Source: an uncultured delta proteobacterium (GTDB lineage Bacteria; Desulfobacterota; Deferrimicrobia; Deferrimicrobiales; Deferrimicrobiaceae). From it: a stretch of 64,000 nt of DNA. A model generated the notes under the pieces. The model searched no databases and was not told the origin of the DNA. It was given only the letters and a program-made list of their open reading frames with translations. A program made the position numbers and the translations under genes. Shown here in pieces: positions 20,807 to 44,991 of this stretch. The stretch lies in contig CAVYRM010000001.1 in the NCBI GenBank assembly GCA_963770975.1, positions 127,792 through 191,791 of the forward strand, given 5' to 3'. Positions within the stretch are counted from its first letter, which is position 1. The number at the start of each line of letters is the position of its first letter.

Positions 20807-20920
20807 ATGAAAGTCAGACCATCGGTGCGAAAAATCTGCACCAAGTGCAAGGTCATCCGGCGCAAGGGAGTCGTGCGGATCATCTGCGAGAACCCGAAGC
20901 ACAAGCAGCGCCAGGGATAG
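20807..20920 (+). CDS. rpmJ: 50S ribosomal protein L36
   Basis: Not in the ORF track because it is under 60 aa. [37 protein letters not shown], 37 aa, a zinc ribbon of C-x2-C..C..H. Confidence 0.95.
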
Positions 20921-20969
20921 ATTTTACGGCTGATCGCCGGATTCGCCCGGGAGGGCAAGGAGGAAACGG

Positions 20970-21353: not shown

Positions 21354-21404
21354 GGACGGCTGGAGCAGCCGGCGAGAACCCCGCCGCTGGGCGGGTGCGG
21401 AGGA

Positions 21405-21797: not shown

Positions 21798-21835
21798 TCG
21801 CCGCAACCCCCTAAGGGACAAGGAGGACATTTTCT

Positions 21836-24216: not shown

Positions 24217-24684
24217 TTGGAGCGGCCCCCCGCCTTGAAGCATCTTCTCGGACGCATCGATCGTGAAATCCTGGACGCCGGCGGGAAAAGGAGCCGGAGC
24301 CGGTCCGTGGTGATGGAGCGTTTCTTCGGATCGCGCGAACACGTCACCGTGGAGGAGCTCGCCCGCTCCGTGAGGAAGAAGCACCCGGGGGTGGGGACCG
24401 TGACGGTTTACCGCACCCTGAAACTCCTGGAACGGATGGGTTACGCGAAGGAACTGGATTTCGGCGAGGGCGTGAAACGGTACGAAAGCAACCTCGCGTC
24501 GCATCATGACCACCTCGTCTGCAGGAAGTGCGGCACGGTCATCGAGTTCGAGAACGCGAACATCGAAAAGCTCCAGGATTCCGTCACGCGGCAGCACGGC
24601 TTCCACCCCACGGCCCACCGCCTGGAAATCTACGGGTTCTGCCGCCGATGCACCCCCGGGGAAGGCACGGGGGGCGCCGGATGA
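24217..24684 (+). CDS. fur: Fur-family transcriptional regulator (probable ferric uptake regulator)
   Basis: HHDHLVCRKCGTVIEF and the C-terminal CxxC match the Fur family. It sits in front of feoB. Confidence 0.85.
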   Translation: MERPPALKHLLGRIDREILDAGGKRSRSRSVVMERFFGSREHVTVEELARSVRKKHPGVGTVTVYRTLKLLERMGYAKELDFGEGVKRYESNLASHHDHLVCRKCGTVIEFENANIEKLQDSVTRQHGFHPTAHRLEIYGFCRRCTPGEGTGGAG

Positions 24685-26651
24685 AAACCGCCTCGATCGT
24701 GGAAACCGCGCAGAACCCGGTGATCCTCGTCGGCAATCCGAACGTCGGGAAAAGCGTCGTTTTCGGCGCTCTCACGGGCAGGTACGTCAACGTCTCGAAT
24801 TACCCGGGCACGACCGTCGAGATCTCCAGGGGAGAGGCGCGCGATCGCGGCACGACCTACGAGGTGATCGACACCCCCGGCGTCTATTCGCTCCTGCCCA
24901 TGTCGGAGGACGAGCAGGTCACCCGGGATATCCTGATGCGGGAGCCCGGCGCGAAGGTCCTGCAGGTGTGCGACGCCAAGAACATGCGCCGATCGCTGAT
25001 GATCACCGTTCAACTCTCCGAGATGGGGGTCCCGCTCGTCCTGGCGGTGAACATGGCCGACGAGGCGAGGGAATGCGGGGTGATGCCGCGCCTGGAATCC
25101 CTCGAGGGCCGGCTGGGGGTACCCGCGGTCCCCACCGTGGCGGTACGGAAAAAGGGTACGGACCGTCTCCTCCCGCTCCTCGTGCATCCATCGCCCTCCA
25201 CCATCCGGATCGACTACGGGGAGAAGATCGAGGCGGCCATCGTGCGGATGGAAAGGCTGCTTCCGGAGGAAACCCCGGTCGGCAAGAGGGCGCTCGCGGT
25301 CATGCTGCTTTGCGGGGACGACTCCCTCGGACCCTGGATATCGGAGAACGTACCCGTCGCGCGCATCCGGGAAATGAACGACGTGAGGAACCGGCTGGTC
25401 GAGGAATCGGGGGAGGAGATCGTCTTCCGCGTGAACCAGGCCCGGCTCTACTGGATCGACCAGTTGCTCGAGGAACTGGGCGTGGAATCTTCCGCTCCCG
25501 CCGGGAGGAGCATCTCCACGGCGTTCGGGCGATACGCGATGGACCCGGTCTACGGGGTCCCGATCCTCGTCGGCGTTCTCTTCCTGGCCTACGAATTCGT
25601 GGGGGTGTTCGGCGCGGGGTTCCTCGTGGACCTGCTGCAGAAATCGTTCTTCGAGAAGTGGATCATTCCGTCCATCGCCGCGCTGATCGACCGGTTCCTG
25701 CCCTCGGCATTCCTGCGGGACTTCCTGGTGGGCCCCTACGGGATGATCTCCATGGCCCTTTCCTACGCGGTCGCGATCGTCCTGCCGATCGTCGGGACGT
25801 TCTTCTTCGGGTTCGGGATCCTGGAGGATTCCGGGTACCTTCCGAGGCTCGCGGTGATGGTGGACCGCCTGTTCAAGAAGATCGGGTGCAACGGCAAGGC
25901 GGTCCTCCCGATGATCCTGGGCCTGGGTTGCGACACGATGGCGACGTTGACCACGAGGATCCTCGAAACGCGGAAGGAACGGATGATCGTCACGCTGCTG
26001 CTCGCCCTGGGCGTCCCGTGCTCCGCGCAGCTGGGCGTGATCCTCGGCATGCTCTCCGACGTGGGGCCGGCGGCGACCATCACATGGCTCGCCTTGCTGG
26101 TGGGCATCATCCTGCTGGTCGGGTTCCTCGCCTCGAAAATCATCCCCGGGGACTCCTCGGACTTCATCCTCGAGATCCCGCCCATCCGGTGGCCGAAGGC
26201 GGGAAACCTTGCCGTCAAGACGATGGCGCGCATCGAGTGGTACCTGAGGGAAGCGGTCCCGCTGTTCCTCCTCGGCACGTTGATCCTGTTCGCAGCGGAC
26301 CGGCTCGGATGGCTGTCGTGGTTGCAGAAGGCGGGCGAGCCGTTGATCGTCCGGGTCCTCGATCTCCCGCCGAAGGCGATGGAGGCGTTCCTGATCGGGT
26401 TCCTCCGGCGGGACTACGGGGCCGCGGGGCTCTTCAGCATGGCGAAGGCCGGGATGCTTTCCCACCTCCAGGTGGTGGTGAGCCTGATCACCATCACGCT
26501 CTTCATTCCCTGCCTTGCGAATCTCCTCGTGATCGTGAAGGAGCACGGGGGGAAGGTCGCGGCAGGGATGGCGTTGTTCATCTTTCCCTTCGCGCTGCTG
26601 GTCGGGGCCGCCGTAAACCTCGTCGCGCGCTGGGCGGGGATCGTTTTCTGA
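24681..26651 (+). CDS. feoB: ferrous iron transporter FeoB
   Basis: N-terminal G-domain VILVGNPNVGKS..DTPG. Polytopic C-terminal half. 656 aa. Its ATG overlaps the fur stop (ATGA). Confidence 0.93.
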   Translation: MKTASIVETAQNPVILVGNPNVGKSVVFGALTGRYVNVSNYPGTTVEISRGEARDRGTTYEVIDTPGVYSLLPMSEDEQVTRDILMREPGAKVLQVCDAKNMRRSLMITVQLSEMGVPLVLAVNMADEARECGVMPRLESLEGRLGVPAVPTVAVRKKGTDRLLPLLVHPSPSTIRIDYGEKIEAAIVRMERLLPEETPVGKRALAVMLLCGDDSLGPWISENVPVARIREMNDVRNRLVEESGEEIVFRVNQARLYWIDQLLEELGVESSAPAGRSISTAFGRYAMDPVYGVPILVGVLFLAYEFVGVFGAGFLVDLLQKSFFEKWIIPSIAALIDRFLPSAFLRDFLVGPYGMISMALSYAVAIVLPIVGTFFFGFGILEDSGYLPRLAVMVDRLFKKIGCNGKAVLPMILGLGCDTMATLTTRILETRKERMIVTLLLALGVPCSAQLGVILGMLSDVGPAATITWLALLVGIILLVGFLASKIIPGDSSDFILEIPPIRWPKAGNLAVKTMARIEWYLREAVPLFLLGTLILFAADRLGWLSWLQKAGEPLIVRVLDLPPKAMEAFLIGFLRRDYGAAGLFSMAKAGMLSHLQVVVSLITITLFIPCLANLLVIVKEHGGKVAAGMALFIFPFALLVGAAVNLVARWAGIVF

Positions 26652-26854
26652 TGGCGGGAGAAACCGTGAAGATCCCGTGCCCGCTTTGCGGGTTCGAAAT
26701 CGATCCGTCGGACCGGGCCTGCCGGTCGGGATGCCCCATGGGAAAGGGATGCACCCTTGTCTGTTGCCCCAGATGTCGCTACTCTTTCCCCATGCCGGAG
26801 TCGAAGACCGTGAATTTCCTCAAGACCCTTCTCTCGAAAGGAAGCCGGAGATGA
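26651..26854 (+). CDS. small Cys-rich protein (67 aa, 8 Cys), a putative metal-binding Feo accessory of unknown function
   Basis: MAGETVKIPCPLCGFEIDPSDRACRSGCPMGKGCTLVCCPRCRYSF.... Its ATG overlaps the feoB stop (TGATG) and its stop overlaps the next gene's ATG (ATGA). It is the tail of track ORF 24506..26854. Confidence 0.55.
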   Translation: MAGETVKIPCPLCGFEIDPSDRACRSGCPMGKGCTLVCCPRCRYSFPMPESKTVNFLKTLLSKGSRR

Positions 26855-27498
26855 CCGAGCAAGGACAGGACGAGATCCTCGAACTCCTGTGGACGCTTCG
26901 GGAGGAGGGGAGGGCGACCCGGTCCGAGCTGCTTCGTTCGACGACGGAAGCAAGCCCCGAGCAGCTGCTCGAGGAGATCCACGCCGGAGGCCTTGTCGAC
27001 GCGTCCCGGGACGAGATCCTTCTCACGAAGAGCGGCGAGGACCGGGCGCGGGGGATCATCCGGCGCCACCGGCTTGCCGAGGTGCTCCTGCAGAACCTGT
27101 TCGAACTGGACAACACCCAGCTGGAACACAGCGCCTGCCAGTTCGAGCACATCCTTTCCGAGCCCGTGGTGGAGAGCGTCTGCACGTTCCTCGGGCACCC
27201 CCCCGTCTGCCCCCACGGGCGGTCCATCCCGAGGGGGGAGTGCTGCAACCGGATCCGCACCGAGATCCGCCCCCTGGTCATGCGGCTGACCGAGGCTTCC
27301 CTCGGGACGACGGTCCGGATCGTGTTCATGACCCCCAAGTCGAAAAAACGGCTCGAGAAGCTTTCCGCCCTCGGGATCGTGCCCGGAAGCCGGCTGAGGA
27401 TCCTCCAACGGACCCCGTCGTACGTCCTCCAGATCGGCCAGACCACCGTGGCCGTCGACCGGGATATCACCGATGAGATCTACGTCAAGGTATCGTAG
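26851..27498 (+). CDS. DtxR/IdeR-family metal-dependent repressor with a C-terminal FeoA/SH3-like domain
   Basis: RRHRLAEVLL...HSACQFEHILSEP is the DtxR metal-site signature. The C-terminal VRIVFMTPKSKKRLEKLSALGIVPGSRLRILQ is FeoA-like. Preferred start is MTEQGQDEILELL at 26851. Confidence 0.8.
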   Translation: MTEQGQDEILELLWTLREEGRATRSELLRSTTEASPEQLLEEIHAGGLVDASRDEILLTKSGEDRARGIIRRHRLAEVLLQNLFELDNTQLEHSACQFEHILSEPVVESVCTFLGHPPVCPHGRSIPRGECCNRIRTEIRPLVMRLTEASLGTTVRIVFMTPKSKKRLEKLSALGIVPGSRLRILQRTPSYVLQIGQTTVAVDRDITDEIYVKVS

Positions 27499-28768
27499 GG
27501 CCGTCGCGCTCTTCCTTTCCGTCTCCCTCGTCGCGGGGACCTTCACGCCGGCTCTCGCCGGTGATCCCGTCGGGACGAGGCAGCCCGCGCTCCTGCTGAA
27601 GTACGCCGCGCCGGACCTCCCGGATGCGGAGGCCCGCAAGGTGCTCGATCCCCTGGCCGGGATCCTCGGAAAGGAGCTCCAGGTCCGCTGGCTTCCCGTT
27701 CCGTCGGAAACCCCCCGGGATGGCCGGGCTCCCGGCGTTCCCCCCGTTCCCGACGACACCGCCCTGCGGCGGATCGCGGGAAAACTCACCAGGGCATCCC
27801 GGTCGATGGACAAGCTGGAGACTTCGGAAGCCGCAAGGGCGCTGGAGGAGGCCGAGAGGGAGTGCCGGTCGTACCGGTTCACGGATGCGACCAGGCCGTT
27901 TCTCGCCGAAATCTTCCTCCGCCGGTCGATCCTGCGCTTCTGGAAGGGAAAAACCTCCGAAGCGGAGGCGTTGGCTGCCCGCGCGCGGGCGATGCGCCCC
28001 GGGTTCTCCCCGGACCCTGCGATGTATTCCCCGCAATTCCTGTCCCTCTGGGAGGCCGCGAAGCGACGCCCCGTGCCGGAGGCGGAACTCCTGGTCCAGT
28101 CCCTCCCTTCCGGCGCGGAAATCTTCATCGACGGGGAGCGGCAGGGGGTCACCCCCTCGCGCGTCAGGATACGGAAGTACGCCCCGCTGCGGGTCCGGGT
28201 CTCCCACCCCGGTTACCGGGACGAGGAAAGGACCGGCCAGTGGCTTCCAGGGGATACGGAGATCCTCGAATTCACCCTGTCGGGCGACCGGGTGGCCCGC
28301 CTCGGAGACCTCCTGTCGCGGGCACCCCGCGAGAAAGGCGCCGGAACCGGCCCTCTGCTGGAAGAGCTCTCCAAGGCGGCGGGAACGGGTCGAGTGGCCG
28401 TATTGACGCTGGAAAAGGATGGAAACGGGGGAGGGTGCCTCGCGCGCCTGTACGGCCATCGGACGGGCGGACGGGACCTGGCCCTTCTCGGGGAGAAGGT
28501 CGTGGCCGGGGGGGAGGAAGCCGCGGAGGTATCCGGGTCCTGGGCGGCGAACGCGCTTGCAGCCGACGGATGGCCGCGTGCGGAACGCGTCGAAAGTCCG
28601 TGGTACTATAGTGCCTGGTTTTGGCTGGGGGTAGCATCGGTTGCGGGATTGGCCGTCGCCCTGGGGGGGGGAGGCGGCGGAGACGGAGGAGGAGGGACCG
28701 GCGGAGGGGGCACCGGCGGAGGAGGAACCGGCGGCGCCACGGACGGTACCGTCGCAGTGAATTTCTAA
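27473..28768 (+). CDS. secreted/membrane PEGA-domain protein with a C-terminal TM helix and a Gly-rich (GGGGT)n tail
   Basis: Signal peptide VALFLSVSLVAGTFTPALAG. PEGA-like SLPSGAEIFIDGERQGVTPSRVRIRKYAPLRVRVSHPGY. TM helix WFWLGVASVAGLAVAL, then GGGGGGDGGGGTGGGGTGGGGTGGATDG. Confidence 0.6.
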   Translation: MRSTSRYRRAVALFLSVSLVAGTFTPALAGDPVGTRQPALLLKYAAPDLPDAEARKVLDPLAGILGKELQVRWLPVPSETPRDGRAPGVPPVPDDTALRRIAGKLTRASRSMDKLETSEAARALEEAERECRSYRFTDATRPFLAEIFLRRSILRFWKGKTSEAEALAARARAMRPGFSPDPAMYSPQFLSLWEAAKRRPVPEAELLVQSLPSGAEIFIDGERQGVTPSRVRIRKYAPLRVRVSHPGYRDEERTGQWLPGDTEILEFTLSGDRVARLGDLLSRAPREKGAGTGPLLEELSKAAGTGRVAVLTLEKDGNGGGCLARLYGHRTGGRDLALLGEKVVAGGEEAAEVSGSWAANALAADGWPRAERVESPWYYSAWFWLGVASVAGLAVALGGGGGGDGGGGTGGGGTGGGGTGGATDGTVAVNF

Positions 28769-28799
28769 CCTCGGGAAAAGGCAGGGGCCGCATCCCCCC

Positions 28800-30140
28800 A
28801 TGAGCTGGATCCTCACCATTCTCCTGTTGCTCGTCTCCGTGGAAACCTTCGCGGCGGACGCCGAAACCGTGATCCGGGGTCTCGGGAACACGAAGATCAT
28901 CCGTTCGAACGAACCTCCCCACACGATCCTAAACGAAGCCTGCGTCGCGTGCCATCCCAAGGAAAAATTCGAGTACTGGCTTCTCATCTACAAGGGAAAG
29001 GCGCCTTCGCTGACCGTTGACCGGCCGGAAGGCAGCGATCAACGGGCCGGCACCGAAGCAGCCCCCGTTCGCGGGAAGACCAACCGGTACAATTCCCACG
29101 ACTCCCTCGCCTGCAATCTGTGCCACTTGCAGAACCCCACGGAAGCGGCCCCCAAGTTCATCGTGGACGTCGCCGACCTGTGCCGGCTGTGCCATCCGGG
29201 CACGGGGATGCACCACCTCCCCGATCCCGCCGGCCTGGCGCTGGTGAAGAAGGCGATCCTGGGCAGGAAACTGCCCGGAAGGGACGGGGAGCCGCTGTGC
29301 ACGACGTGTCACAAGACCCACGAATCCACCTACACGATGCGCCAGGTATACGCCGAGACGCTCTGGGAAGGGAAGGTTCCCAACCCCCACGGGAGCAGGA
29401 TGCTCTGTTTCGCCTGCCACACAGGACGGATCAAGGAAGGACAGGAAATCCGCCTCACGACGGGAAGGGACAACATCAAGCTCTGCAACGCGTGCCACAC
29501 GAAGCCGGGGGTGAAAAAGAGCCCGCACATCGTGGACGCGACCTCCTCCGAGGGGACGTGGAGGATGGATTACCTCGGGTATCCCCTCAACCAGGGGAAG
29601 CTCGTCTGCTCCACCTGCCACGACGAGGTCTCCCACGGGAAACGGGACCCCGCGAACCCGAAATTCCTTCGGGGCGGCCCGTACGCGGACCCGGACAAGT
29701 TCTGCTATCGTTGTCACCTGGAGGACAAGGATGTCTACAACAACCCCCACCGCCAGGTCGACGGGTTCGGGAGAATCCGGGCGGAGTCCTGCCTCTTCTG
29801 CCACCGCAACAACCCGGATGCGGGAAAGGACGTGCCGGCGAACCGCGAGATGGTGGCCGAGGACCGGGTGGTGTGCTCGAACTGCCACCAGCTGCGCGCG
29901 CACCCCGGCGTCGATCACCTGATTCTCCTGAAGGGGGAGAAGGCCGCCCGGAAGGAAGAGTACGAACGGAGACAGCAGATTCGCCTGCCCCTTGCCGGAG
30001 ATGGGAAGATCACGTGCAGCACATGCCACAACCCTCACGCGAAGGGGGTTCTGAAGGGGGAGAGCGGCGTGGGCGGCGGCTCGAAATGGCGCGTGCCGGA
30101 CTTCAGGGAGGTCTGCGCGCCTTGCCACGGTAGATACTGA
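28800..30140 (+). CDS. dodecaheme c-type cytochrome, periplasmic or outer
   Basis: Signal peptide MSWILTILLLLVSVETFAA. 12 CxxCH motifs. Confidence 0.88.
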   Translation: MSWILTILLLLVSVETFAADAETVIRGLGNTKIIRSNEPPHTILNEACVACHPKEKFEYWLLIYKGKAPSLTVDRPEGSDQRAGTEAAPVRGKTNRYNSHDSLACNLCHLQNPTEAAPKFIVDVADLCRLCHPGTGMHHLPDPAGLALVKKAILGRKLPGRDGEPLCTTCHKTHESTYTMRQVYAETLWEGKVPNPHGSRMLCFACHTGRIKEGQEIRLTTGRDNIKLCNACHTKPGVKKSPHIVDATSSEGTWRMDYLGYPLNQGKLVCSTCHDEVSHGKRDPANPKFLRGGPYADPDKFCYRCHLEDKDVYNNPHRQVDGFGRIRAESCLFCHRNNPDAGKDVPANREMVAEDRVVCSNCHQLRAHPGVDHLILLKGEKAARKEEYERRQQIRLPLAGDGKITCSTCHNPHAKGVLKGESGVGGGSKWRVPDFREVCAPCHGRY

Positions 30141-30164
30141 AGAACGACCCGACCGGAGGAAGCG

Positions 30165-30830
30165 ATGATCGACCTGTTCGTGAAAGGGGGATTCGCGATG
30201 TACCCCCTGCTGATCCTATCCGTGGTGACGCTCGCGATCGCCATCGAGCGGACGGTGTACCTGCGCAAGGCGCGGATCAACACGGGGGAGTTCATGGAAA
30301 CCATCAACAGCTTCCTCTCCAGGAACGCGCTGGAGGAAGCGCACCGGTACTGCGATTCCACTTCGGGTCCGATCTCCCGGATCATCAAGGCGGGACTGAA
30401 GAACCAGAAACGAGGCCGGGAAGACGTGATCCGGTCCATCGAGGACGCCGGCGCGATCGAGGTCGCCCAGCTGGAGCGGGGGATCCTCATCATACAGACC
30501 ATATCGAAGCTCGCCCCGCTCATCGGGCTGTTCGGCACCGTGACCGGGATGATACGCTCTTTCCAGGCGATCGGAGGCGCCGGCGGGGAGAATCCCAGGC
30601 TGGTCGCCGCGGGGATCGGCGAGGCGCTGGTCGCCACCGCGGCCGGGCTGGTCGTCGCCATACCGGCGTACTTCCTGGCGTTCTATTTCATGAACCGGGT
30701 GAGCAAGTTCATCCTGGAGATGCAGAAGAGCTCGATCCAGTTCCTCGACGGCCTGGGCGAGCTCGAGGAGATGATCGCGGAGCGCACCCAGCGGTTCGAC
30801 ACGGTGGGAGGAGACTACCTTGAAGTTTAA
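30165..30830 (+). CDS. exbB: MotA/TolQ/ExbB proton-channel protein
   Basis: 3 TM helices. The family signature region LIGLFGTVTGMIRSF is present. Confidence 0.85.
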   Translation: MIDLFVKGGFAMYPLLILSVVTLAIAIERTVYLRKARINTGEFMETINSFLSRNALEEAHRYCDSTSGPISRIIKAGLKNQKRGREDVIRSIEDAGAIEVAQLERGILIIQTISKLAPLIGLFGTVTGMIRSFQAIGGAGGENPRLVAAGIGEALVATAAGLVVAIPAYFLAFYFMNRVSKFILEMQKSSIQFLDGLGELEEMIAERTQRFDTVGGDYLEV

Positions 30831-31221
30831 GAGAAGGCTCCAGGGAGACGAGGAGGGGATCCCGATCACCAACCTCGTGGACGTGCTCTTTCTGCTGATC
30901 GTCTTCTTCATGATGTCCACGGTGTTGAGTTTCGACCGCGGATTCGGGGTGAAGCTTCCGGAAAGCGGGGCCGCCGGGACGATCTCGAACAAGGGCGTCA
31001 GCGTGCTGATCTCCCGCGAGGGGAAGGTGTACGTGGACGGGAACGAGACGCCGATCGACCGCGTGGGAGAGGTGGTCAAGGCGCGGCAGCGGACGGCCGG
31101 GAACAACGTCGTGCTGAAAAGCGACCAGGACACGCGGTTCCAGGCGATCGCCGACGTGATGGACCGGCTGCTCGCCGTCGGGATCGGGGACCTCTCCCTC
31201 CCCGTCCTGGAAAGAAGGTAG
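30820..31221 (+). CDS. exbD: ExbD/TolR biopolymer transport protein
   Basis: Single N-terminal TM helix ITNLVDVLFLLIVFFMM plus a periplasmic domain. Its start overlaps the exbB end. Confidence 0.85.
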   Translation: MKFKRRLQGDEEGIPITNLVDVLFLLIVFFMMSTVLSFDRGFGVKLPESGAAGTISNKGVSVLISREGKVYVDGNETPIDRVGEVVKARQRTAGNNVVLKSDQDTRFQAIADVMDRLLAVGIGDLSLPVLERR

Positions 31222-31234
31222 GAGAGGCAACGCC

Positions 31235-32110
31235 TTGGAAGGGAAGGGCGTACGGAGGGTATTGCAGCCGGCCTTGTACCTCGGCATCGCGATCCTCGTC
31301 CACGCCCTCTTATTCCTCGTCCCGTCCGGGACCGGATCGAAACCCGCGGACGGGACCACCCGGGGGATGCGGATCCGCGCCGTCGCGGCCCCCGGAAGGG
31401 CTCCTTCGCCGCCGGTCACACCCTCTCCCGCCCGCTTGGCGCCGCAGACCGCGGAGATACCACCGAAGTTCGGCACCGGTCCGAAGGGTCCCCAGGGATC
31501 CGAACCGGCATCCGGATCCGGGGGAACCCCGGGCGGGGGTGGCGGTCCACCGGTGGACGGCGCGGCGACGCCGGGTGCCCCGCCGGTCGGAGAGTACGCG
31601 GCGTACATCGCCCGCTTGCGGTCCGAAGGGGTGCAGGGATGGGCCCGGGACAGCGCGAGCCGGATGCGCCAGGGATGGAAAGGCACGGGGAAAGGCGGAG
31701 GGGGGTTGGGGATCGGGTATGGAGCCGGCGCGGGAGCCGGAGCGGGTGGGCGCGGAGGGGGAAGCGGCCGCAGCGGCGGGGGTGGAACGGGTGACGGCTA
31801 CCTCGACTCGCGGGTGCGGATGGTGGTGACCAGCTACCCTCCGACCACGATCGAAAGACGGTTCACGATGGTGGCGTACCCGGACCTGAAGGTGAAGAAG
31901 CACGAGTACACCGCCGGGTGGTGGAACGTGTTTATCCAGATGCGGACCGATGCCTCGGGGAAGGTGACGCAAACCCGGGTTCTCCGGCCGGAAACGGACG
32001 GACCGCTGGAGAGGATCTTCGTGGACCAGGTGCGCAAGGAGATCGGCCGGTGGACCTTCGATCGCGCGGCCGCCGAAATCAACGTCGACGTGCGGTTCTA
32101 TGTCGAATAG
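31235..32110 (+). CDS. tonB: TonB-like energy transducer
   Basis: N-terminal TM anchor ALYLGIAILVHALLFLV. Pro/Gly-rich spacer. The C-terminal ~80 aa domain resembles the TonB C-terminal domain only weakly. Confidence 0.6.
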   Translation: MEGKGVRRVLQPALYLGIAILVHALLFLVPSGTGSKPADGTTRGMRIRAVAAPGRAPSPPVTPSPARLAPQTAEIPPKFGTGPKGPQGSEPASGSGGTPGGGGGPPVDGAATPGAPPVGEYAAYIARLRSEGVQGWARDSASRMRQGWKGTGKGGGGLGIGYGAGAGAGAGGRGGGSGRSGGGGTGDGYLDSRVRMVVTSYPPTTIERRFTMVAYPDLKVKKHEYTAGWWNVFIQMRTDASGKVTQTRVLRPETDGPLERIFVDQVRKEIGRWTFDRAAAEINVDVRFYVE

Positions 32111-32867
32111 GTCGGCAACCGCCGTTTTTCGCCGGGTTTGCTTTCCTTTCGCCGTCATCGGGGTGCTGGTTTCCGGCGCATCCCTCGCATCCGACCAGGA
32201 AGGGTGCCTCCTTTGCCACCGTCTGTCCCTCCGGGTGGTGGTCGACGGGACGGAAAGGAACCTGAAGGTAGACGATCGAGCCGCCTGGATCCACGAGGCC
32301 CTCTTCTGCTCGGATTGCCACCCGGATGCCAGGAACGCCCCGCATCCGGCACCTCCGGGCGCCGCACAGTGCATCGGGGAGTGCCATGGAGGCGGGGAAG
32401 GCGCGATCTCATCGCATCGGAGAGCCGCCTTCGGCGGGTTGACCGAAACCCACAGGCGGGTCAGCCCGGGGAAAGGCGCCTGTTTGCCGTGCCACAGGGC
32501 TTCGGACGCGAAAACGGGACATGCGGCGACGGAACGACGGTGCGACGGGTGCCATCCCGGGGAGCGGGCCGCCGCGTCGAGAGGGCCGCACGCCCGCCTG
32601 GCGGATTCCCCCGGATTCTGTTCCGGGTGCCATCCGCCGCATCCCGCGTTGACCGGAAAGGGGGATCCGACGATCCAGGCCTGTGCCGCGTCCGGCTGCC
32701 ATGCCCGGGTGTCCCCCGCGATGAAGGCGTTGGCCGACCATCGAACATCGCGCGGGGCGGGCAGCGGAATCGGGAAGGCGGCGCTTTTCTTCCTCCTGGC
32801 CTGTGCGGGATGGCTCGCCGGATCGGCATTGTCCCCGAAGCCGGGTCGCGGGGAGGGAGGAACATGA
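32100..32867 (+). CDS. heptaheme c-type cytochrome with a C-terminal membrane anchor (CbcA-like)
   Basis: Signal peptide. Five CxxCH motifs plus CIGECH (CX3CH) and CAASGCH (CX4CH). C-terminal hydrophobic AALFFLLACAGWLAG. The ATG at 32100 overlaps the tonB stop. Confidence 0.8.
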   Translation: MSNRSATAVFRRVCFPFAVIGVLVSGASLASDQEGCLLCHRLSLRVVVDGTERNLKVDDRAAWIHEALFCSDCHPDARNAPHPAPPGAAQCIGECHGGGEGAISSHRRAAFGGLTETHRRVSPGKGACLPCHRASDAKTGHAATERRCDGCHPGERAAASRGPHARLADSPGFCSGCHPPHPALTGKGDPTIQACAASGCHARVSPAMKALADHRTSRGAGSGIGKAALFFLLACAGWLAGSALSPKPGRGEGGT

Positions 32868-33802
32868 ACTGGATCCAGCCTCCCGAAACGGTCCGGAGAT
32901 TCACGATCCACCAGATCCTGCAGCACGGATTCGCGGTGGCGCTGTGGGTCCTTCTCCTCGGGAGCGCGATCGCGGCCGGGTGGGGAATCTCCGGCGTGCG
33001 TTCCCTCCATGCGGTCGTCGGAATCGCGGGCGGAGCCTTCATCGTGTACCATGCGCTGACACTGGCGGCGATCGGGATCCTCCTCGACATGCCTGCCGAG
33101 AGAATCGCTTTCCTTCCCTGGGGGCGGGACTGGGATGCGATCCGCCGCCGGAAGGGGAGCACCGAAGACCCGGGTAAATACGTTCCGGCGGAGAAAGGGG
33201 ATTACCTCGCGATCCTGGCATGGAGCCTGTTCGCGGTCCTGTCCGGGATCCTTCTTCGATGGCCCTCCTTCTTCGGCGTCCCGGGATCCGGCGCGTACGA
33301 CTGGATCCGCGCCGCGCACGCCGGGTTCGGCGCCTCGCTCACGGTCCACATCCTCGTCGTCCACCTTCCCGGCCGCTGGACGCACGCTTCCCCCGCGTTC
33401 CGACGCGCCGTCCTTTCCGGCACCGTTCCGCTATCGGAGGCGGAAAAGAGGGGGGGGTGGATCCGCGACCTCGTTGCGCTCGGAGTGCTCGTCCCCGCTC
33501 CCGAGGAAACCGTCACGGCGGAGGAGAAGGAATCCGGGACGGTCAGGGAGTTGCTGGAGCGGGGAAACCGCCTTGTCCGCGAAGGGATGTACACGGAAGC
33601 GTGCGATGCCTACGAGGCGGCGCTTCGCCTGTTGCCGGACTATTCGCAGGCGCGGTTCAACTTCGCGGTCGCGCTGTTCCGGGGAGGGCGCAGGGAGGAA
33701 GCGACGACGCAGTTGAGGATATTCCTCGAAAAGGATCCCTTCAACCCGATGGTGGAGAAGGCGAGGGGAATGATCGAGGAGATCGAGGGGTCCGCGGAAT
33801 GA
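32864..33802 (+). CDS. diheme b-type cytochrome membrane subunit (FdnI/HyaC/CbcB-like) fused to a C-terminal TPR domain
   Basis: VRRFTIHQILQHGFAVALWV is the cytochrome b RFxxxxRxxH signature. 4 TM helices carry conserved His. The C-terminal ~100 aa is TPR-like (YTEACDAYEAALRLLPDYSQARFNFAVALFRGG). The ATG at 32864 is the preferred start. Confidence 0.75.
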   Translation: MNWIQPPETVRRFTIHQILQHGFAVALWVLLLGSAIAAGWGISGVRSLHAVVGIAGGAFIVYHALTLAAIGILLDMPAERIAFLPWGRDWDAIRRRKGSTEDPGKYVPAEKGDYLAILAWSLFAVLSGILLRWPSFFGVPGSGAYDWIRAAHAGFGASLTVHILVVHLPGRWTHASPAFRRAVLSGTVPLSEAEKRGGWIRDLVALGVLVPAPEETVTAEEKESGTVRELLERGNRLVREGMYTEACDAYEAALRLLPDYSQARFNFAVALFRGGRREEATTQLRIFLEKDPFNPMVEKARGMIEEIEGSAE

Positions 33803-34344
33803 AGCGAATCGCCGAACGCATCGGGCCGGCCGCGGCCGTCGTCGCGACACTGCTCCTCTTCTGGACCGTGGCCAGGGGAGGAAGCGGGCACGTCAGGAAG
33901 GTCCCTTCCCGTACGGCATCGGCTTCTTTTCACGGCGACGGCACGATCCGCGAGGTTCCCCCGGATCCCGACTGCGCCGGACCGAAATGCCATGCCGCAT
34001 CCTCCCATCGGGCGTCGGGGCCGCGGAGCGCTTTCCTCAACCAGCACGCGGAAATCGTCTCCTGCCTGGGCTGCCACGGCCGGGAGCCGGAACGCGGATG
34101 GGGCGTGCCGAAAGATGGAGGAAAGGGTGGGATTCGCCTGGTCTACTCTCCAAGCCCGGAGCCCGGGAAGCAACACGCCGGTATCGGTCCACCGGCCTCC
34201 TGCACCCGGTGCCATTCGCCTGAAGGCCGGCGAGCGATCCTCTCCGCCGGGGTGAAGGGACTGGGAGAAGGGTTCGATTCGCCGATCGCTCTTCGGATGA
34301 TCGAGGGGGGAGGACGAAAGTGGGTCCCGGACGATATGCGATAA
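33799..34344 (+). CDS. small triheme c-type cytochrome
   Basis: Signal peptide. CAGPKCH (CX4CH), CLGCH and CTRCH. The ATG overlaps the preceding stop (ATGA). Confidence 0.7.
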   Translation: MKRIAERIGPAAAVVATLLLFWTVARGGSGHVRKVPSRTASASFHGDGTIREVPPDPDCAGPKCHAASSHRASGPRSAFLNQHAEIVSCLGCHGREPERGWGVPKDGGKGGIRLVYSPSPEPGKQHAGIGPPASCTRCHSPEGRRAILSAGVKGLGEGFDSPIALRMIEGGGRKWVPDDMR

Positions 34345-35210
34345 CGGCGTTCCTCCTCTTTCTATGCGCGGCGTTGCCGACCGGCTCGGCACGCGGCGCG
34401 GAGGGGGGGAGCGATGCGATCTGGATACGCCAGGCCCAGTCCCGGCAGCTCTCGACCCCGTACGACGTGGCCGTGGACCGGAAAGGGGTCGTCTTCCTGC
34501 TCGAATCCGGTGCAAGGACCATATCGATCTTCTCCCCGCGGGGAGAGTTCCTCCGCGAGATCGCCGGAAAGGGAGGATGGAAGGATCCCTCGGCGATCGC
34601 GATCGGATCGTCCGGCTCGATTTTCCTCGCGGACGGCGTCGGATCCAGGGTATTGGAGATCGATCTCTCCGGAAAGGTGAAGAGGGAGTACGTCGTAGGC
34701 GGAAACGCGAGAGTGACGGGGGTTTCGGTTCTTGGAGACGCGGTCTACTGCGTGGACAACCGGAACCACCGGGTCGCGGTATTCCGGAAGCCCGGCGTCC
34801 CGCCGGAATTCTGGGGAAAGCGGGGGGAAGGCCCGGGGCAGTTCCAATCCCCGTTCCGGATCGCCGTCGATTCTTCCGGACGCGTATTCGTCACGGACGT
34901 CCTGAACGCGCGCGTGCAGTGGTTCACCGCGTTCGGCCGACACCTCGGGACCCTGAAACGATTCGGGGCGGCGGAGGGAAAGATCTTCCGCCCCACGGGG
35001 ATCGCCCTGGACCTTCGAGGCCGGATCTGGATCGGGGACAGCTACACCGGCCTGGTGCAGCTTTTCGGGGAAGGCGGCGAATTCGCGAAGACGCTTCGCG
35101 CGAAGGGACGCCCCGTCGTCTTCGGCGACCCCGTCGGGCTGGCCGTGGCGCCGGGCGGCATCTGGGTTGCGGACCAGCGGGAGAATCGCCTGGTCCTGTT
35201 CCGGGACTGA
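34320..35210 (+). CDS. secreted NHL-repeat six-bladed beta-propeller protein
   Basis: Signal peptide ITAFLLFLCAALPTGSA. Repeated motifs YDVAVD/IAIGSSGSIFLAD/VYCVDNRNHRVAVF/IAVDSSGRVFVTD/IALDLRGRIWIGD/LAVAPGGIWVAD are characteristic of NHL repeats. Confidence 0.8.
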   Translation: MGPGRYAITAFLLFLCAALPTGSARGAEGGSDAIWIRQAQSRQLSTPYDVAVDRKGVVFLLESGARTISIFSPRGEFLREIAGKGGWKDPSAIAIGSSGSIFLADGVGSRVLEIDLSGKVKREYVVGGNARVTGVSVLGDAVYCVDNRNHRVAVFRKPGVPPEFWGKRGEGPGQFQSPFRIAVDSSGRVFVTDVLNARVQWFTAFGRHLGTLKRFGAAEGKIFRPTGIALDLRGRIWIGDSYTGLVQLFGEGGEFAKTLRAKGRPVVFGDPVGLAVAPGGIWVADQRENRLVLFRD

Positions 35211-35229
35211 AACGGGAAGGAGCGCTGCG

Positions 35230-35436
35230 ATGGGAAACATGAAATGGGAATACGGCCAGATCTTCGTTCGTCAACCGGATGTGTTCGGAGGGCTTCCGAA
35301 AAACGGGCTCGAAATGGAGAAGATGAACCGCGCGGGCACGGAAGGGTGGGAGATGGTCGGGGTGGTCCCCTTCACCATCCCTTCGGGGGAAGTACGCGGT
35401 GCGTTCATCCTCTTCAAACGGGAGATCGCCGGCTGA
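35230..35436 (+). CDS. small DUF4177-like protein
   Basis: MGNMKWEYGQIFVRQ...GWEMVGVVP...AFILFKRE, 68 aa. The start at 35230 is preferred over the track ORF's 35167. Confidence 0.55.
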   Translation: MGNMKWEYGQIFVRQPDVFGGLPKNGLEMEKMNRAGTEGWEMVGVVPFTIPSGEVRGAFILFKREIAG

Positions 35437-35455
35437 ACCGGACGGCGGACATCGA

Positions 35456-38217
35456 TTGAAACGGTTCATCGTCCCCCTCGTACTCCTCCTCGCCTTCCTT
35501 GCGGAAGGACGCGGGAATGCAAGGCCTGCCTTCGACCAGGAGAAATGCTCCCTTTGCCACATCAAGGAGAGCGTGTTCTTCGACTCCTCCTTCCTGCCGC
35601 CGGACGGGTTGAAATCCTTCGGGGAAGAGCGTCTTTGCGGAAGCTGCCACAACGGTTCCGTCCAGGACAGCCGGGCCGAACTGTGGAGGGGAACGCAGCA
35701 TCCGGCCGCAGGGTCGGGAAAAGGGAGGTGCACGGGGTGCCACTCTCCGCATGCCAAGGGGGGGTGGGGAGCTCTCGCGGGGAACGGGGCGTCGTTGAGA
35801 AAGGGGGGGAACGCCCTCTGCGGAGGGTGCCATGCGGCACAGTCCGGGAACGGCGGACTCCTGCACGGAAAGCAGATCGGGAATGCCGGATGCAAGGAGT
35901 GTCACGTCGCCCACGGCGGAACCGGGAAGGCCCTGCTTCGCGATACCGGGAGCACGCTCTGCCGGAGATGCCACGGATCGATCAATCCGGAGAAGGACGG
36001 CGGCCATCCCCTCGACGGCAGGAAGGTGCGGGCCGGTGAATCCGCGGCGCTGCCCGGCTGCCTGGCGTGCCATCCCGTCCACGGGAAAAAGGGCGATACG
36101 GTGGACCTCGCCGACCGGTGCGGCTCCTGCCACGCATTCGGGGGAAAAGGGAAGGGGGCCGAGACCCGGTCGCACTCCGGCGTGGGAAAGTGCACCACGT
36201 GCCATACGTTCCACTCGCGGACCGGGGATGGCGGCCGTGCATTCCGCGGAAAGGATATCCGGTCGGATGCGTTGTGCCGGTCGTGCCACCCTTCCTTCAA
36301 CGCCGCGGATGTCCGGGCGGGACGGGCTGCCGGCACGCACGTCACGATCTCCGGGGAGGGACGCCGCGACATCTGCGGCCGTTGCCACCAACTGCACGGC
36401 GCGCCCGCCGGGACACCGCTGCTTCGCTCGCGAAAGTCCTACTTCTGCCTGGACTGCCACGACAGCCAGAACACGATCCGGGAGAGCAGCGGCATCTCGC
36501 TGGCGCATCCCGTGTTCGAGAAGGTCACGAAAGGGCGGCTGGCCGACGTGGTCCGGGAGAAAAAGGTTGCGGTCGGCCCGGCCGGAGAGATCATCTGCGC
36601 CACCTGCCACAAGGTGCACGGAGCGGAAAAGGAGACGCCGCTGCTCGCTTCCGGGGCCGACAAGGGGGAGAGCTGTTCCTGGTGTCACCCGGGCATGCGT
36701 GGGAAATCCCACGGAAAGACCGGCGGCTGGACGTCTCCCGGATGCGATGGGTGCCACCCGGTTCACGGACGAAAGAGTGCGGACGGCGACCCGTGGGGCC
36801 TGCTCTGCCGAAAATGCCATCCGCGGTCTTCCGCGCACCAGGCCGGAATCGGCGATCGCGTCACGGGCAGGGCGATGGACCTCCCGGAGTTCGATCCGCG
36901 GGGAAGAACGGCCGCGTACGGTGCCATCACATGTCCGACGTGTCACGACCCCCACGGGGACAGCGCCCTGCCGAAACGCCTGCGGAAACAGTACCGGCCG
37001 AACGGCTTCCTCTGCACCACCTGCCACCGGTCCCAGGACACGGTCGTCCTCACCCCCCACGATCTGCGGGGCATCGCGGGGGATGGCGTCTGCGAACCTT
37101 GCCACAAACCCCATGCGGGGGAATCTCCGTGGATGTGGGGATTGGCGAGGGGGGCAGGCGAAACGGGGGAGGAATCGTGCCGGGCCTGCCACCTCGCGGG
37201 AGAAGGGAAGGGACTGGGAATGCCGGTCCCCCGGGGGGGGCACCCGACGAACGTCCTTGCTTCCCGCCCCCTTCCGGACCGGTTTCCGAGGATCGGACCC
37301 GAAGGTCGTTTCTCCGAAACGGGGGTCATCTCCTGCTCCACATGCCACGTCGTGCACGGCCGCGGAGTCATGCCGGTGGGCCAGGGAGTCGGAAAACTCC
37401 TGCGAGCTTCGGATGCTTCCCGGAGCAACCCCGTCCGCCATCGGCGATCTGCGCGGAATGCCACCCGGGGAAGGACCGCCGGCACGGGGCGGCGGACTGT
37501 CTCGCCTGTCATCCTCCGCACAGGGATGAAAAGGCGGGAGCGGCCTGCCTGAAATGCCACCCCGGCCAGAAGGGCGCACTGGTCGAACGACACGGGAAAA
37601 CGGGGGCCGCCTGCGGTTCCTGCCACAAGTTGCACGCCAAGGATGCGGAGGCGGGAAATTCCGGGGAACGCTGCGTCCGTTGCCATTCCACCACCCGGAA
37701 GATCCTGAAAACCCCCCATGCGGCGCTGGGAGCGAACGCCTGCGACGGGTGCCACCCGGCCCACAAGGAAATCCAGGTTCACACCTTCCGCCCGAAGCTG
37801 GGCGAGGAGATATTTCCACCGGACCTGCTGTGCCTGCGATGCCATCGCGAAGGAAGAACGGCCCCGGCGCCGAAGTGGCCGAACCATCCGGCGCGTACGC
37901 AGGAGGTGCCGACGAACTACGGCGCGAAAGTCATCCTGGAAACCCCGGTCACGATGGTGGGTCGGTACAAGGAGGGTTCACGCCCGATGTTCCCGCTGTT
38001 CGACGCGGCAGGGAAGCCGGCGCTCTCCGGCACGATGGGGTGCCTGACCTGCCACGATCCCCATGCCGGGGGCGCACGGAACGACAAACCTGCGGCGAAT
38101 GCCTACCTTCGGGATGCGAGCTCGGTTTTTCTGGCCGAAATTTGTGGTTCCTGCCACAAGGAGAATACGGTGGAAAGGGTCCGGAAATTCCACGTCATGC
38201 CGAGAGTGCCGCGATAA
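35456..38217 (+). CDS. giant ~30-heme c-type cytochrome, apparently frameshifted at about 37400-37450
   Basis: TTG at 35456 gives the signal peptide MKRFIVPLVLLLAFLAEGRGNA. 21 CxxCH motifs lie in the frame of ORF 35399..37552. 9 more lie in the frame of ORF 36067..38217. Adding one C to the C4 run at 37429-37432 joins them (..SNPRPPSAICAECHPG..). Confidence 0.7.
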
Positions 38218-38273
38218 AGGAACATTTCCTGCGAACGTTCGACCGCATTTTTCGATATGATGTTGGACACGAC

Positions 38274-38657
38274 ATGGGACGGATTGGCGACAGCAAAGAG
38301 GTGACGATCCCCCTGAAGAACCCGGGACGGGGGAAGCGGAGGATACCGCTGTTCATCGCCGCCGGTCTCGTCTTTGCGGCGGTGTTCATCTCCCTCTTCC
38401 GGGACATGGGCGTCGTGGACAGTTGGAAGCTCGATCGAACGGAACGGCAGCTGCGCGAGGAGGTCGTGAAGCTTCGGCAGGAAAACGCGATTTTGAAACA
38501 AACGGTCGAGGACCTGCGCAGCAACCCTGCGGTCATCGAACAGGAAGCCCGGCGGATCGGTCTCATAAAGGAGGGGGAGAACGTGATCGTCGTTCCCCCG
38601 AAACCGGATGCCTCCTCCAAATCGCCCGTAAAACCCACTCCAACGAAGCGTCCATAG
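38274..38657 (+). CDS. ftsB: septum formation initiator FtsB/DivIC-family protein
   Basis: TM helix IPLFIAAGLVFAAVFISLF, then the coiled coil LDRTERQLREEVVKLRQENAILKQTVEDLRSNPAVIEQEARR. 127 aa. Confidence 0.75.
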   Translation: MGRIGDSKEVTIPLKNPGRGKRRIPLFIAAGLVFAAVFISLFRDMGVVDSWKLDRTERQLREEVVKLRQENAILKQTVEDLRSNPAVIEQEARRIGLIKEGENVIVVPPKPDASSKSPVKPTPTKRP

Positions 38658-38694
38658 GGCACAGGAGCGTCTTCCTACGCCGTGCCGGGGCACG

Positions 38695-38723
38695 TTGACA
38701 CCTCTGCCGGATAGGGGATAAAC
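38695..38723 (+). promoter_or_regulatory. candidate sigma70 promoter for argS
   Basis: TTGACA at 38695-38700, a 17-nt spacer, then ATAAAC at 38718-38723, which is a weak -10. Confidence 0.3.
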
Positions 38724-38760
38724 TGCCTACTTTACGAATATTTATCCATCGAGGGGGCAG

Positions 38761-41102: not shown

Positions 41103-42585
41103 GTGATCGTACCCGACAGGGAGCAGTTCCTCGAACAGGCCGCGGGAGGCGCGCTCGTCCCGATGTTCCGCGAGTTTCATGCCGACCTCGAGACGCCGGT
41201 ATCGGCATACCTGAAGATTTCCGCCCGGTTCCCGACCGACCACTTCCTCCTGGAAAGCGTCGAGGGGGGGAGAAGTGGGCACGGTACTCCTTCATCGGGT
41301 TCGACCCCCACCTGTGCTTCCGTGCGGACGCGAACGGGATCTCGGTCCGGAAAGGGGCGGAGACGAAGACCGTTCCCGTCGACGGGGATCCACTCGAGGC
41401 ACTCGAGGGGCTGCTGAAGGGGATCCGCTTTCGGCCGGACCCGGGTCTTCCGAGACTCTCCGGAGGAGCCGTCGGATTCATCGCGTACGACTATGTTCGA
41501 TATCTCGAACGGGTCGGGATCGAGGGGGGTTCGAACGGGGCCCCGGATGCCATGTTCCTTTTCCCGTCTCGCCTAGTGATCTTCGACAACGTCCGCCATA
41601 CGATCCGTATCGTCGCCCACGCCGGAATCGACGGGAACGAAGAGCCGGATTCGGCCTACGAGCGCGCCCTCGCAGGCATCGACGAGGTATGGCGGATCCT
41701 CCGGGAACCGATGGACTGGTCCGACGTGCCCGATGAGGAAACCGAAGGGGAATCCACCGGTTTCGAGATCCCGAGGGAAACGTTCCTCGAAGCGGTGCGG
41801 AAAACCAAGGAGCATATCCGGAACGGCGATATCATCCAGGCGGTCATCTCCAACCGGGCGACCGTCCGCACCCGCCGCACCCCGGCAGAAGCGTATCGGG
41901 TGCTGCGTGCCCTGAACCCGTCTCCCTACATGTACCTGCTGAAAATGGGGGAAATGGCGGTGGTGGGCTCCTCGCCGGAAATCCTCGTCCGGCTCGAAGG
42001 GGACGAGATCCAGCTGCGGCCGATCGCGGGCACGCGTCCGCGCGGCGGTAGCCCGGAAGAGGACCGCCGTATGGAAGCGGAGCTGCTCTCCGACCCGAAG
42101 GAGATCGCGGAGCACGTGATGCTGGTGGACCTCGGGCGAAACGACGTGGGCCGGGTTGCCGCCTGGGGGTCCGTGAAGGCCGACGAATTGATGGTGGTGG
42201 AGAAATATTCCCACGTCATGCACATCGTATCCAACGTGGTGGGAAAGCTTCGGAAAGGGTTGACGGCATTCGACGTGCTCCGCGCCGCGTTTCCCGCGGG
42301 CACGGTCTCCGGCGCCCCGAAGGTCCGGGCGATGCAGATCATCACCGGGACCGAGCCGTTCCGGCGCGGCATCTACGCCGGAGCGGTAGGGTATTTCGAT
42401 CTCCAGGGAAGCATGGACTTCTGCATCGCCATCCGGACCATCGTGATGTCGGGGGGGGAGGCGATGATCCAGGCCGGCGCCGGGATCGTGGCGGATTCGG
42501 ACCCGGCCCGGGAGTGGGACGAGATCCTCAGCAAGGTGAAGATCCTGTTCCGCGCGGTCGGGGTGTCGACAACGGGAGGTTCCCG

Positions 42586-42589
<4 letters not shown>
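41103..42589 (+). CDS. trpE: anthranilate synthase component I, frameshifted at the G7 run at 41264-41270
   Basis: The N-terminal 55 aa are in the frame of ORF 41103..41417. From ..[19 protein letters not shown] onward the protein reads in the frame of ORF 41552..42589. The catalytic [25 protein letters not shown]...GAPK motifs are intact. Confidence 0.85.
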
Positions 42590-44208
<1,619 letters not shown>

Positions 44209-44214
44209 TTCCCG

Positions 44215-44991
44215 ATGGCGTCGCACCTCGAGCGGATACTGGCCGGCGTCCGGGAGGACCTGTCCCTCCGGAAATCGACCGCTTCGATGGAAGATCTCCT
44301 GCGGAAGGAGGATTCCCGCGGACCCGCGAAAGACCTCCTGCGGTCCGTGCCGGAAGCCCCCGGCATCATCGCGGAGATCAAGCGCGCCTCGCCGTCCCGC
44401 GGCTGGATCCGGAAGGACCTGGATGCCGTCGCGACGGCCGGGGCGTATCTCCGGGGGGGGACATGGGCGATCTCCGTCCTGACGGAGACGAGATGCTTCG
44501 GCGGCACGCTGGGGGACCTCTCGTCCGTCCGCGACGCCTACCCGGGCGCGATCCTGTTGAGGAAGGATTTCGTGCTGGACGAGTACATGCTTGCCGAATC
44601 CAGGGCGTACGGCGCGGACATCGTCCTTCTCATGGTCTCCGTGCTCGGCGGGCATACGGCCGGGATGGCCGCCCGTGCGAGGATCCACGGGCTGGAACCC
44701 CTGGTGGAGGTGCGCAACGAGGCGGAGATCGCGATCGCGGCGCGTTCCGGGGCAAGGCTGATCGGAATCAACAACCGTGATCTCGATACGTTGACTGTGG
44801 ACCTGTCGACTGGGGAACGACTTCTCCCGCTCCTGCCGCCGGGGACGATCCCGGTGGTGGAGAGCGGCATCACGGGAGCGTCACAGGTGAGACGGTTCCG
44901 TGATATGGGCGCGCGGCTTTTTCTCGTCGGCGAATCCCTCGCGAACAGCGAGGACCCCGCAGACAAGATCCGGGAGTATGTGGGAAAATGA
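44215..44991 (+). CDS. trpC: indole-3-glycerol phosphate synthase
   Basis: IIAEIKRASPSRG...VLTE...LLRKDF...GINNRDL are the TrpC signature motifs. Confidence 0.93.
   Translation: MASHLERILAGVREDLSLRKSTASMEDLLRKEDSRGPAKDLLRSVPEAPGIIAEIKRASPSRGWIRKDLDAVATAGAYLRGGTWAISVLTETRCFGGTLGDLSSVRDAYPGAILLRKDFVLDEYMLAESRAYGADIVLLMVSVLGGHTAGMAARARIHGLEPLVEVRNEAEIAIAARSGARLIGINNRDLDTLTVDLSTGERLLPLLPPGTIPVVESGITGASQVRRFRDMGARLFLVGESLANSEDPADKIREYVGK

Follow-up and report, generated by a model that had tools for sequence, protein, structure and literature searches.

The question raised by this locus is whether two overlapping reading frames that are rich in heme-binding motifs are two cytochrome genes or the two halves of one, and, if they are one, whether the gene is broken in the organism or only in the sequence that represents it. 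The locus lies on the + strand of a 64,000-nucleotide (nt) stretch of contig CAVYRM010000001.1 (assembly GCA_963770975.1), which comes from an uncultured bacterium of the Deferrimicrobiaceae; we call the whole of this stretch the window, and coordinates are those of the window unless another locus is named. An earlier note, made from the sequence alone, had described a giant c-type cytochrome gene at 35456-38217 that is split by a single-base frameshift. We find firm support for the prediction that the two open reading frames (ORFs) are the halves of one gene, coding for a secreted c-type cytochrome of 920 residues with 30 hemes, and we consider a homopolymer-length error in the reads or in the consensus to be the most likely cause of the break, with a probability of roughly 0.6.

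Two reading frames carry 30 heme-binding motifs

Two long ORFs overlap on the + strand, one spanning 35399 (or 35456, where its TTG start lies) to 37552 and the other (36067) to 38217. A motif scan located 21 CxxCH motifs in the frame whose codons start at positions equal to 2 mod 3, the first at 35546 and the last at 37334, and 9 in the -1 frame (1 mod 3), from 37450 to 38143. These are the same counts, in the same frames, as had been given in the earlier note. The scan found no CxxCH on the minus strand between 35000 and 38600, and by chance about 0.02 such motifs would be expected per 900 amino acids (aa), a rough estimate from typical Cys and His frequencies. Insertion of one base gives a continuous ORF of 920 aa, again in agreement with the length of about 920 aa that had been anticipated.

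The 5′ part of the cytochrome gene (35456..37420, + strand, frame 2) encodes native residues 1-655 with heme motifs 1-21. From its TTG start at 35456 it encodes MKRFIVPLVLLLAFLAEG (in a longer stretch, MKRFIVPLVLLLAFLAEGRG), which was judged by eye to be a Sec-type signal peptide, and the start and N-terminus are as in a 920-aa ortholog, P0001, with the same N-terminus being found in the orthologs generally. No lipobox cysteine was seen by eye in this signal peptide. The 3′ part (37421..38217, + strand, frame 1) encodes residues 656-920, within which the stretch ASDASPEQPRPPSAI falls, carries heme motifs 22-30 and ends at the stop codon 38215-38217; its first codon is CCG at 37420-37422, base 37420 being common to the 5′ part. 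If the sequence is read as it stands, the product is truncated at 698 aa: Ser655 is its last native residue, and it is followed by an out-of-frame tail (37421..37552, + strand) of 43 aberrant residues, RSNPVRHRR...RERPA, ending at TGA 37550-37552.

The two parts belong to a single gene

About 60 homologs of 907-946 aa were retrieved from a large protein collection, and these cover 97-100% of the repaired 920-aa query at 46-96% identity; the best of them, P0001, is itself 920 aa long and is 96% identical to the repaired protein. An alignment of 36 sequences including the repaired protein shows 30/30 CxxCH motifs and some 29 further His residues to be invariant, whether they lie before or after the break. 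Species-representative genomes were scanned as well, and 73 loci were obtained, the best match being 66%. Where a close locus has the whole gene on its contig (L001-L006, L008, L010, L013), the gene is a single ORF with exactly 30 motifs, in 8/8 cases, and split orthologs were seen only where genes are cut by contig ends. An uninterrupted ORF is thus a property of the 30-heme family that is present in all eight complete orthologs examined and absent from the window.

The earlier note had held that the downstream part has neither a start context nor a signal peptide of its own, and this is borne out by inspection of its frame. From 37423 to 37800 the 3′ frame offers a single start codon, TTG 37630, which lies inside a heme module. 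No Shine-Dalgarno sequence is found at this codon, and the N-terminus that would begin there, LHAKDAEAGNSGERC, is not hydrophobic and has no signal peptide.

These findings bear directly on the alternative that two separate cytochrome genes, one for 21 hemes and one for 9, abut at this point. Automatic gene calling on a contig of the Logan assembly does indeed yield two products, of 698 aa and 195 aa. However, the 195-aa call starts at the TTG within the heme module, without a ribosome-binding site or signal peptide, and its product would be short of three of the nine motifs and could not undergo the export that heme attachment requires. Likewise, no match exists for the final 43 residues of the 698-aa call, while the other frame fits the orthologs residue by residue. 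Contig-end cuts aside, the orthologs are unsplit, and the homolog set refutes the two-gene alternative for practical purposes; we give it next to no credence. Comparison with homologs had been proposed in the earlier note as a check on the junction, and no two-gene arrangement was found there in the relatives. We conclude that this is a single gene, as had been claimed, because of the full-length homologs, the invariant motifs, the single ORF in related loci and the lack of a usable start in the 3′ part. The predicted cytochrome is a member of a conserved orthologous family in Candidatus Deferrimicrobiota (MBNT15), appearing as ‘cytochrome c3 family protein’ among NCBI names. This family of 30-heme cytochromes has no characterised representative, and the gene adds one member to it.

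A single C is missing at 37419-37421

In order to place the break, we used the nearest relative of the window, a locus from run SRR33230138 (L001), which was aligned to window positions 31430-39792. The two sequences are 97% identical over 8363 nt. They differ by 245 mismatches and by no more than two indels, a coding one in the cytochrome gene and an intergenic one. The coding indel marks the frameshift site (37419..37421, + strand): the missing C sits in GATGCTTCCCGG, with CCC at 37419-37421 in the window and CCCC in L001. Over this site L001 reads GATGCCTCCCCGGAGCAACCCC and the window reads GATGCTTCCCGGAGCAACCCC, and the simplest account of the difference would be a synonymous GCC/GCT change along with the loss of one C from the CCCC run. 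The intergenic indel is at about 38247, between the cytochrome stop codon and ftsB, where the window has one additional A (CCGCATTTTTCG vs CCGC-TTTTTCG).

The earlier note was therefore right that one C is missing, although it had put the loss in the CCCC run at 37429-37432, and the alignment to L001 moves it 8-10 nt upstream of that run. Frame 1 gives PEQP from 37420 onward, identical to the PEQP of L001 and P0001, and because this reading is already established at 37420 the shift has to lie upstream of 37429-37432. The repaired junction is ...GKLLRASDAS|PEQPRPPSAICAECH... and not ASDAS-RSNPRPPSAICAECH, a difference of three residues. It falls in a variable linker between heme 21 and heme 22, where the family consensus is undefined (‘x’) over about 15 columns.

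A further potential explanation is that programmed -1 ribosomal frameshifting, or some other form of recoding, joins the frames and gives 21-heme and 30-heme products from one mRNA. Relative to the 5′ frame the 3′ frame lies at -1, and a ribosome slipping back by one base would restore the protein. However, no slippery heptamer of the form X XXY YYZ lies in frame between 37340 and 37450, and the downstream RNA is not unusually structured, having a minimum free energy of -52.7 kcal/mol against a mean of -51.8 for shuffled sequences (z = -0.23). Nor is the arrangement conserved, as the gene is in a single frame in the 97% identical relative and in all complete orthologs. A C3 run is also far too short for transcriptional slippage. 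With slippery heptamer, special RNA structure and conservation all wanting, we reject programmed frameshifting, which we regard as extremely improbable.

A second frame break is found in trpE

A 1-nt deletion of the same kind was found 3.8 kb downstream of the cytochrome break, in trpE (41103..42589, + strand), which starts at GTG 41103 behind a good GAGGTGA ribosome-binding site. The window has G7 at 41264-41270 where G8 is needed to encode VEGGEKW, as can be seen from a two-frame match to the intact TrpE of four related loci, and locus L004 has G8 in an identical context. When the frame is repaired, the match to Anth_synt_I_N (Pfam) covers positions 1-138 of 140, as compared with 27-138 for the fragment. 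The 120 TrpE homologs that we compared are nearly all 491-499 aa long (with three outliers of 478, 479 and 506 aa), and the intact protein of the relatives has about 496 aa. The trpG/D-, trpC-, trpB- and trpA-like genes downstream of trpE appear intact. No trpE fragments and no trpC product are on record.

Comparison with the ORFs of seven related loci revealed exactly two frame breaks between 25 and 46 kb, namely those in the cytochrome gene and in trpE, and a codon-bias frame scan detected no further breaks in the whole window. A candidate third frameshift at 44206-44221, from trpG/D to trpC, was rejected, as one long ORF is present there only in L004 and the genes are separate in the window and in the other loci. 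In L004 (positions 19788-22235 of that locus, vs 42588-44988 of the window) the trpG/D-like and trpC-like sequences share an 816-aa stop-to-stop ORF, with a joint two-frame match in no other locus, which would mean that L004 has either fused genes or a frameshift at this point. We also rejected the apparent breakage of rpoC into four pieces, since the pieces are rpsL, rpsG, fusA and tuf, all of them intact.

The deletion is probably an error rather than a mutation

The frameshift itself is an ordinary one. The earlier note had named a pseudogene or a homopolymer sequencing error as the two possible causes, and this proved to be the right pair of alternatives, with a truncated product on a second assembly set against the second frameshift in trpE; explanations other than an error or a real mutation, taken together, have only a very slight chance of being correct.

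An error in the consensus is favoured because two G/C runs less than 4 kb apart have each lost 1 nt, and one of these losses hits a core biosynthetic gene whose operon otherwise appears intact. In addition, the 3′ part of the cytochrome gene has no stop codons and has kept 9/9 motifs. The ratio of nonsynonymous to synonymous substitution rates (dN/dS) relative to L001 is 0.42 for the 3′ part, 0.28 for the 5′ part and 0.07-0.59 for intact neighbouring genes, the substitutions being too few to separate an intact gene from one that was recently broken. We infer that the deletion is an artefact and that the organism probably makes the full-length protein.

There are, on the other hand, a number of observations that weigh against an error. 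The exact 698-aa truncated product and the 195-aa piece are found on a 6959-bp Logan contig of run ERR12037368, beside an identical FtsB. As this is a separate assembly, the deletion must be in the majority of the k-mers of that run and can be no accident of one assembler or of polishing; if ERR12037368 is short-read data, then the deletion would be real. A run of three or four C is, furthermore, short for a classical homopolymer error, and the reading frame is preserved at G8 and G9 runs in other parts of the window. Homopolymer lengths in the window are distributed as in short-read relatives, although this spectrum is not diagnostic of the platform; because of this resemblance and of the intact longer runs, a general compression of runs is not indicated. 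Real frameshift mutations, too, arise most commonly by slippage in short runs. Finally, neither the exact repaired cytochrome nor the repaired TrpE is present in the protein collection, and a junction pattern that accepts both alleles gave no match in Joint Genome Institute (JGI) metagenomes.

The deletion could instead be a real and recent mutation, or a strain variant that was dominant in the sampled population, and we consider this possible, at clearly lower odds than an error. The product would then be an exported 21-heme cytochrome of 655 native residues with a 43-residue nonsense tail, from which hemes 22-30 and a beta-rich segment in the C-terminal part have been lost, and trpE would have been inactivated independently. 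The identical truncated product in the second assembly of run ERR12037368 speaks for such a mutation, as do the shortness of a run of 3-4 bases for a systematic sequencing error and the longer G/C runs elsewhere in the window that are in frame. Two pseudogenes among the approximately 75 coding segments called in the window would be a high number but not an absurd one; the pseudogene share in free-living bacteria is typically about 1-3%. A real mutation would nevertheless require two G/C runs less than 4 kb apart to have lost 1 nt independently, one of them in trpE, in a trp operon that otherwise appears intact. The absence of stops, the retention of the motifs and the dN/dS values given above show no sign of relaxed constraint in the 3′ part, and the gene is intact in all eight related loci where the contig spans the whole of it. 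The second assembly, moreover, may rest on the same reads, and hence is possibly not independent.

The outcome matters for the way in which the genome is read. Left uncorrected, it appears to be without its largest cytochrome and without TrpE, and this annotation gap would distort heme counts for this Deferrimicrobiota lineage, along with any prediction of its extracellular electron transfer or auxotrophies. Should the deletion be real, the protein would be naturally truncated, without its last nine hemes, and could show whether its C-terminal third is dispensable.

Predicted organisation and role of the cytochrome

In Pfam, run on the 96% identical ortholog P0001, Paired_CXXCH_1 (PF09699) scores 149.8 bits against a cut-off of 20.6, in seven stretches, and Cytochrome_C7 (PF14522) scores 129.7 bits against a cut-off of 24.8; Cytochrom_c3_2 is also matched. 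The decaheme models of NCBIfam fall short of their cut-offs: the DmsE/MtrA model TIGR03508 reaches 140.9 bits over five partial stretches, below 192.2, and the model for the GSU2203 family, NF041028, reaches 119.8 bits, below 325. The HmcA model scores 25.7 with a cut-off of 400. When a family profile was compared with solved structures, the best match was MtrA of MtrCAB (6r2q_A, E=6e-16, residues 61-322), followed by OmhA, GSU1996, MtrC and HmcA. We conclude that the predicted protein is a concatenation of MtrA/DmsE-like paired-CxxCH modules, about three times the length of MtrA, and is not a member of the decaheme families. Because about 29 further His are invariant beside the 30 motifs, most of the hemes probably have bis-His ligation.

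Between hemes 28 and 29 there is a beta-rich segment that is free of heme motifs (residues ~812-860, window ~37890-38035). It is highly conserved, with the pattern VPTNYGA..ETP...G..EG.RP.FPLFD, and in an AlphaFold2 model of P0001 it has the highest predicted local distance difference test score (pLDDT), with beta strands at residues 814-860. This segment could be a docking or substrate-binding element.

It is predicted from the sequence that the protein carries electrons, and the same applies to its location and to the direction of electron flow. The long chain of closely packed hemes would act as a wire: the cytochromes that the operon supplies to the inner membrane and the periplasm would feed electrons into it, to be passed across the periplasm in the direction of the cell surface or of an iron acceptor outside the cell. 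A role as a heme wire would be in line with the iron-reduction lifestyle that is proposed for the phylum (PMC9386147). Two results do not favour this functional assignment. The AlphaFold2 model as a whole is of moderate quality (pLDDT 66.6, predicted template modelling score 0.47), and with Foldseek it matched no PDB structure below E=0.4.

The earlier note had proposed that the protein is the terminal, distal (outer) component of an electron conduit, and this could not be upheld. A porin match and a lipobox are both lacking, and among solved structures the best match is MtrA, the wire that leads from the periplasm to the outer membrane, and not the surface cytochrome MtrC. A periplasm-spanning role would fit at least as well as an extracellular one.

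Genes surrounding the cytochrome

The 30-heme gene is the last of a predicted cytochrome operon, the upstream genes of which form a tightly packed string on the same strand (32100..35436, +) with overlapping or 20-nt junctions. The first, cyt255 (32100-32867, +), encodes a cytochrome with five CxxCH, one CxxxCH and one CxxxxCH motif and with a hydrophobic segment at each end. Such a mixture of motifs is unusual for a small cytochrome. It is followed by a gene for a 312-aa membrane and TPR protein (32864-33802, +), which has an N-domain of about 200 aa and C-terminal TPR repeats, and by cyt181 (33799-34344, +). Genes for a 296-aa NHL beta-propeller (34320-35210, +) and for a DUF4177 protein of 68 aa (35230-35436, +), both identified with Pfam, complete the string. 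The N-domain of the 312-aa protein has, by eye, four hydrophobic segments with several His, and the gene is translationally coupled to that of the membrane-anchored cyt255; when this domain was tested as a candidate b-type cytochrome, it matched no Pfam family and no PDB structure. The 312-aa protein might be a novel quinol-oxidising partner.

The same gene order, including FtsB and ArgS downstream, is seen in L001, L003-L007 and L010-L013, and is kept while the identity of the cytochrome falls from 97% to 34%. The DUF4177 protein is much better conserved than the cytochrome, at 72-97% identity across L001-L013 vs 34-97%. A 30-heme family with fixed operon partners is a reasonable target for the study of iron reduction in this uncultured phylum.

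A second conserved group of genes lies immediately upstream (24217..32110, +). From Pfam matches and inspection of the sequences, it comprises Fur, FeoB, DtxR-FeoA, a 431-aa PEGA-domain protein, a 12-heme cytochrome (28800-30140), ExbB, ExbD and a 291-aa protein. The last of these is rich in proline and glycine, has an N-terminal hydrophobic segment and is TonB-like by eye, with no family match. The order from FeoB on is kept in L003-L007, L012 and L013 and partly in L010, and the PEGA protein has no tblastn hit in L013. No porin family was matched among the cluster genes scanned with Pfam and NCBIfam, where a porin of an undescribed family would escape, and the only outer-membrane barrel among the genes scanned is LptD (51170-53320). 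The rest of the window is made up of housekeeping genes (rpoC, ribosomal-protein operons, argS, the trp operon, accD, folC, lptD, lepA, lepB, pyrC and carB). Homolog names place the window in the MBNT15/Deferrimicrobiota lineage: those of the cytochrome are from Candidatus Deferrimicrobiaceae (49-50% identity) and those of TrpE from Candidatus Deferrimicrobiota/Deferrimicrobium (82-84%).

The Fur-Feo-PEGA-12-heme-ExbBD-TonB-like string and the cytochrome operon might together form one functional unit, in which the heme wire would reduce external Fe(III) minerals and this reduction would be coupled to Fe(II) uptake and to TonB-energised transport across the outer membrane. If true, this would be cytochrome-driven iron acquisition instead of, or besides, respiration. 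We regard the proposal as unlikely. The conserved order may reflect only a stable region of the chromosome, because the string lies between unrelated housekeeping genes (ribosomal-protein operons, ftsB and argS).

Comparison with known systems

The closest likeness is to the decahemes MtrA, DmsE and MtoA (TIGR03508; 6R2Q), with which the protein shares the paired-CxxCH modules, a Sec signal peptide and extra His consistent with bis-His ligation, and presumably also the action as a heme wire. It differs from them in having 30 hemes in 920 aa where they have 10 hemes in about 330 aa. Unlike in the MtrCAB system, no adjacent gene for an MtrB-like porin or an MtrC-like partner was found here, and there is the extra beta-rich segment between hemes 28 and 29. 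The Geobacter dodecaheme GSU1996 (3OV0) and HmcA (16 hemes, 2E84/2CVC) are likewise built from repeated c7/c3-type modules, and this is reflected in weak profile matches to 3ov0_A (E=8e-6) and 2e84_A (E=1e-4) and in those to Cytochrome_C7; however, the similarity is much weaker than that to MtrA, and heme number and length are different.

Two systems can be likened to this locus by their description. The porin-cytochrome complex PCC3 of iron oxidisers has a periplasmic cytochrome of 21-27 hemes and an extracellular one of 10-35 hemes (PMC10734462). These are very large, predicted linear multiheme cytochromes of comparable heme number that are thought able to span the periplasm or pass the outer membrane (PMC10734462), although the lineage in which PCC3 is found is the Gallionellaceae. 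The Uet undecaheme cluster of Tenderiales and Gallionella contains the NHL-repeat proteins UetH/I and small periplasmic multiheme cytochromes (PMC10734462), and in the window a 296-aa NHL propeller and a small cytochrome are also encoded just upstream of the 30-heme gene. The main cytochrome of Uet has 11 hemes, however, and UetC, which is a beta-barrel, and a peptidyl-prolyl isomerase also belong to that cluster; counterparts of these three were not found here.

The lineage itself provides the last comparison. Work on MBNT15 genomes reports 13-55 multiheme cytochromes for each, with up to 43 hemes per protein, and reads them as evidence of dissimilatory iron reduction, a link that is genomic only (PMC9386147). 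By homolog names the cytochromes of MBNT15/Ca. Deferrimicrobium treated there belong to the same lineage as the window, while the 920-aa family and its operon are not described in the available part of that account (PMC9386147). As giant multiheme cytochromes have been reported both in MBNT15 (PMC9386147) and in iron oxidisers (PMC10734462), the 30-heme gene is of a sort that is already known.

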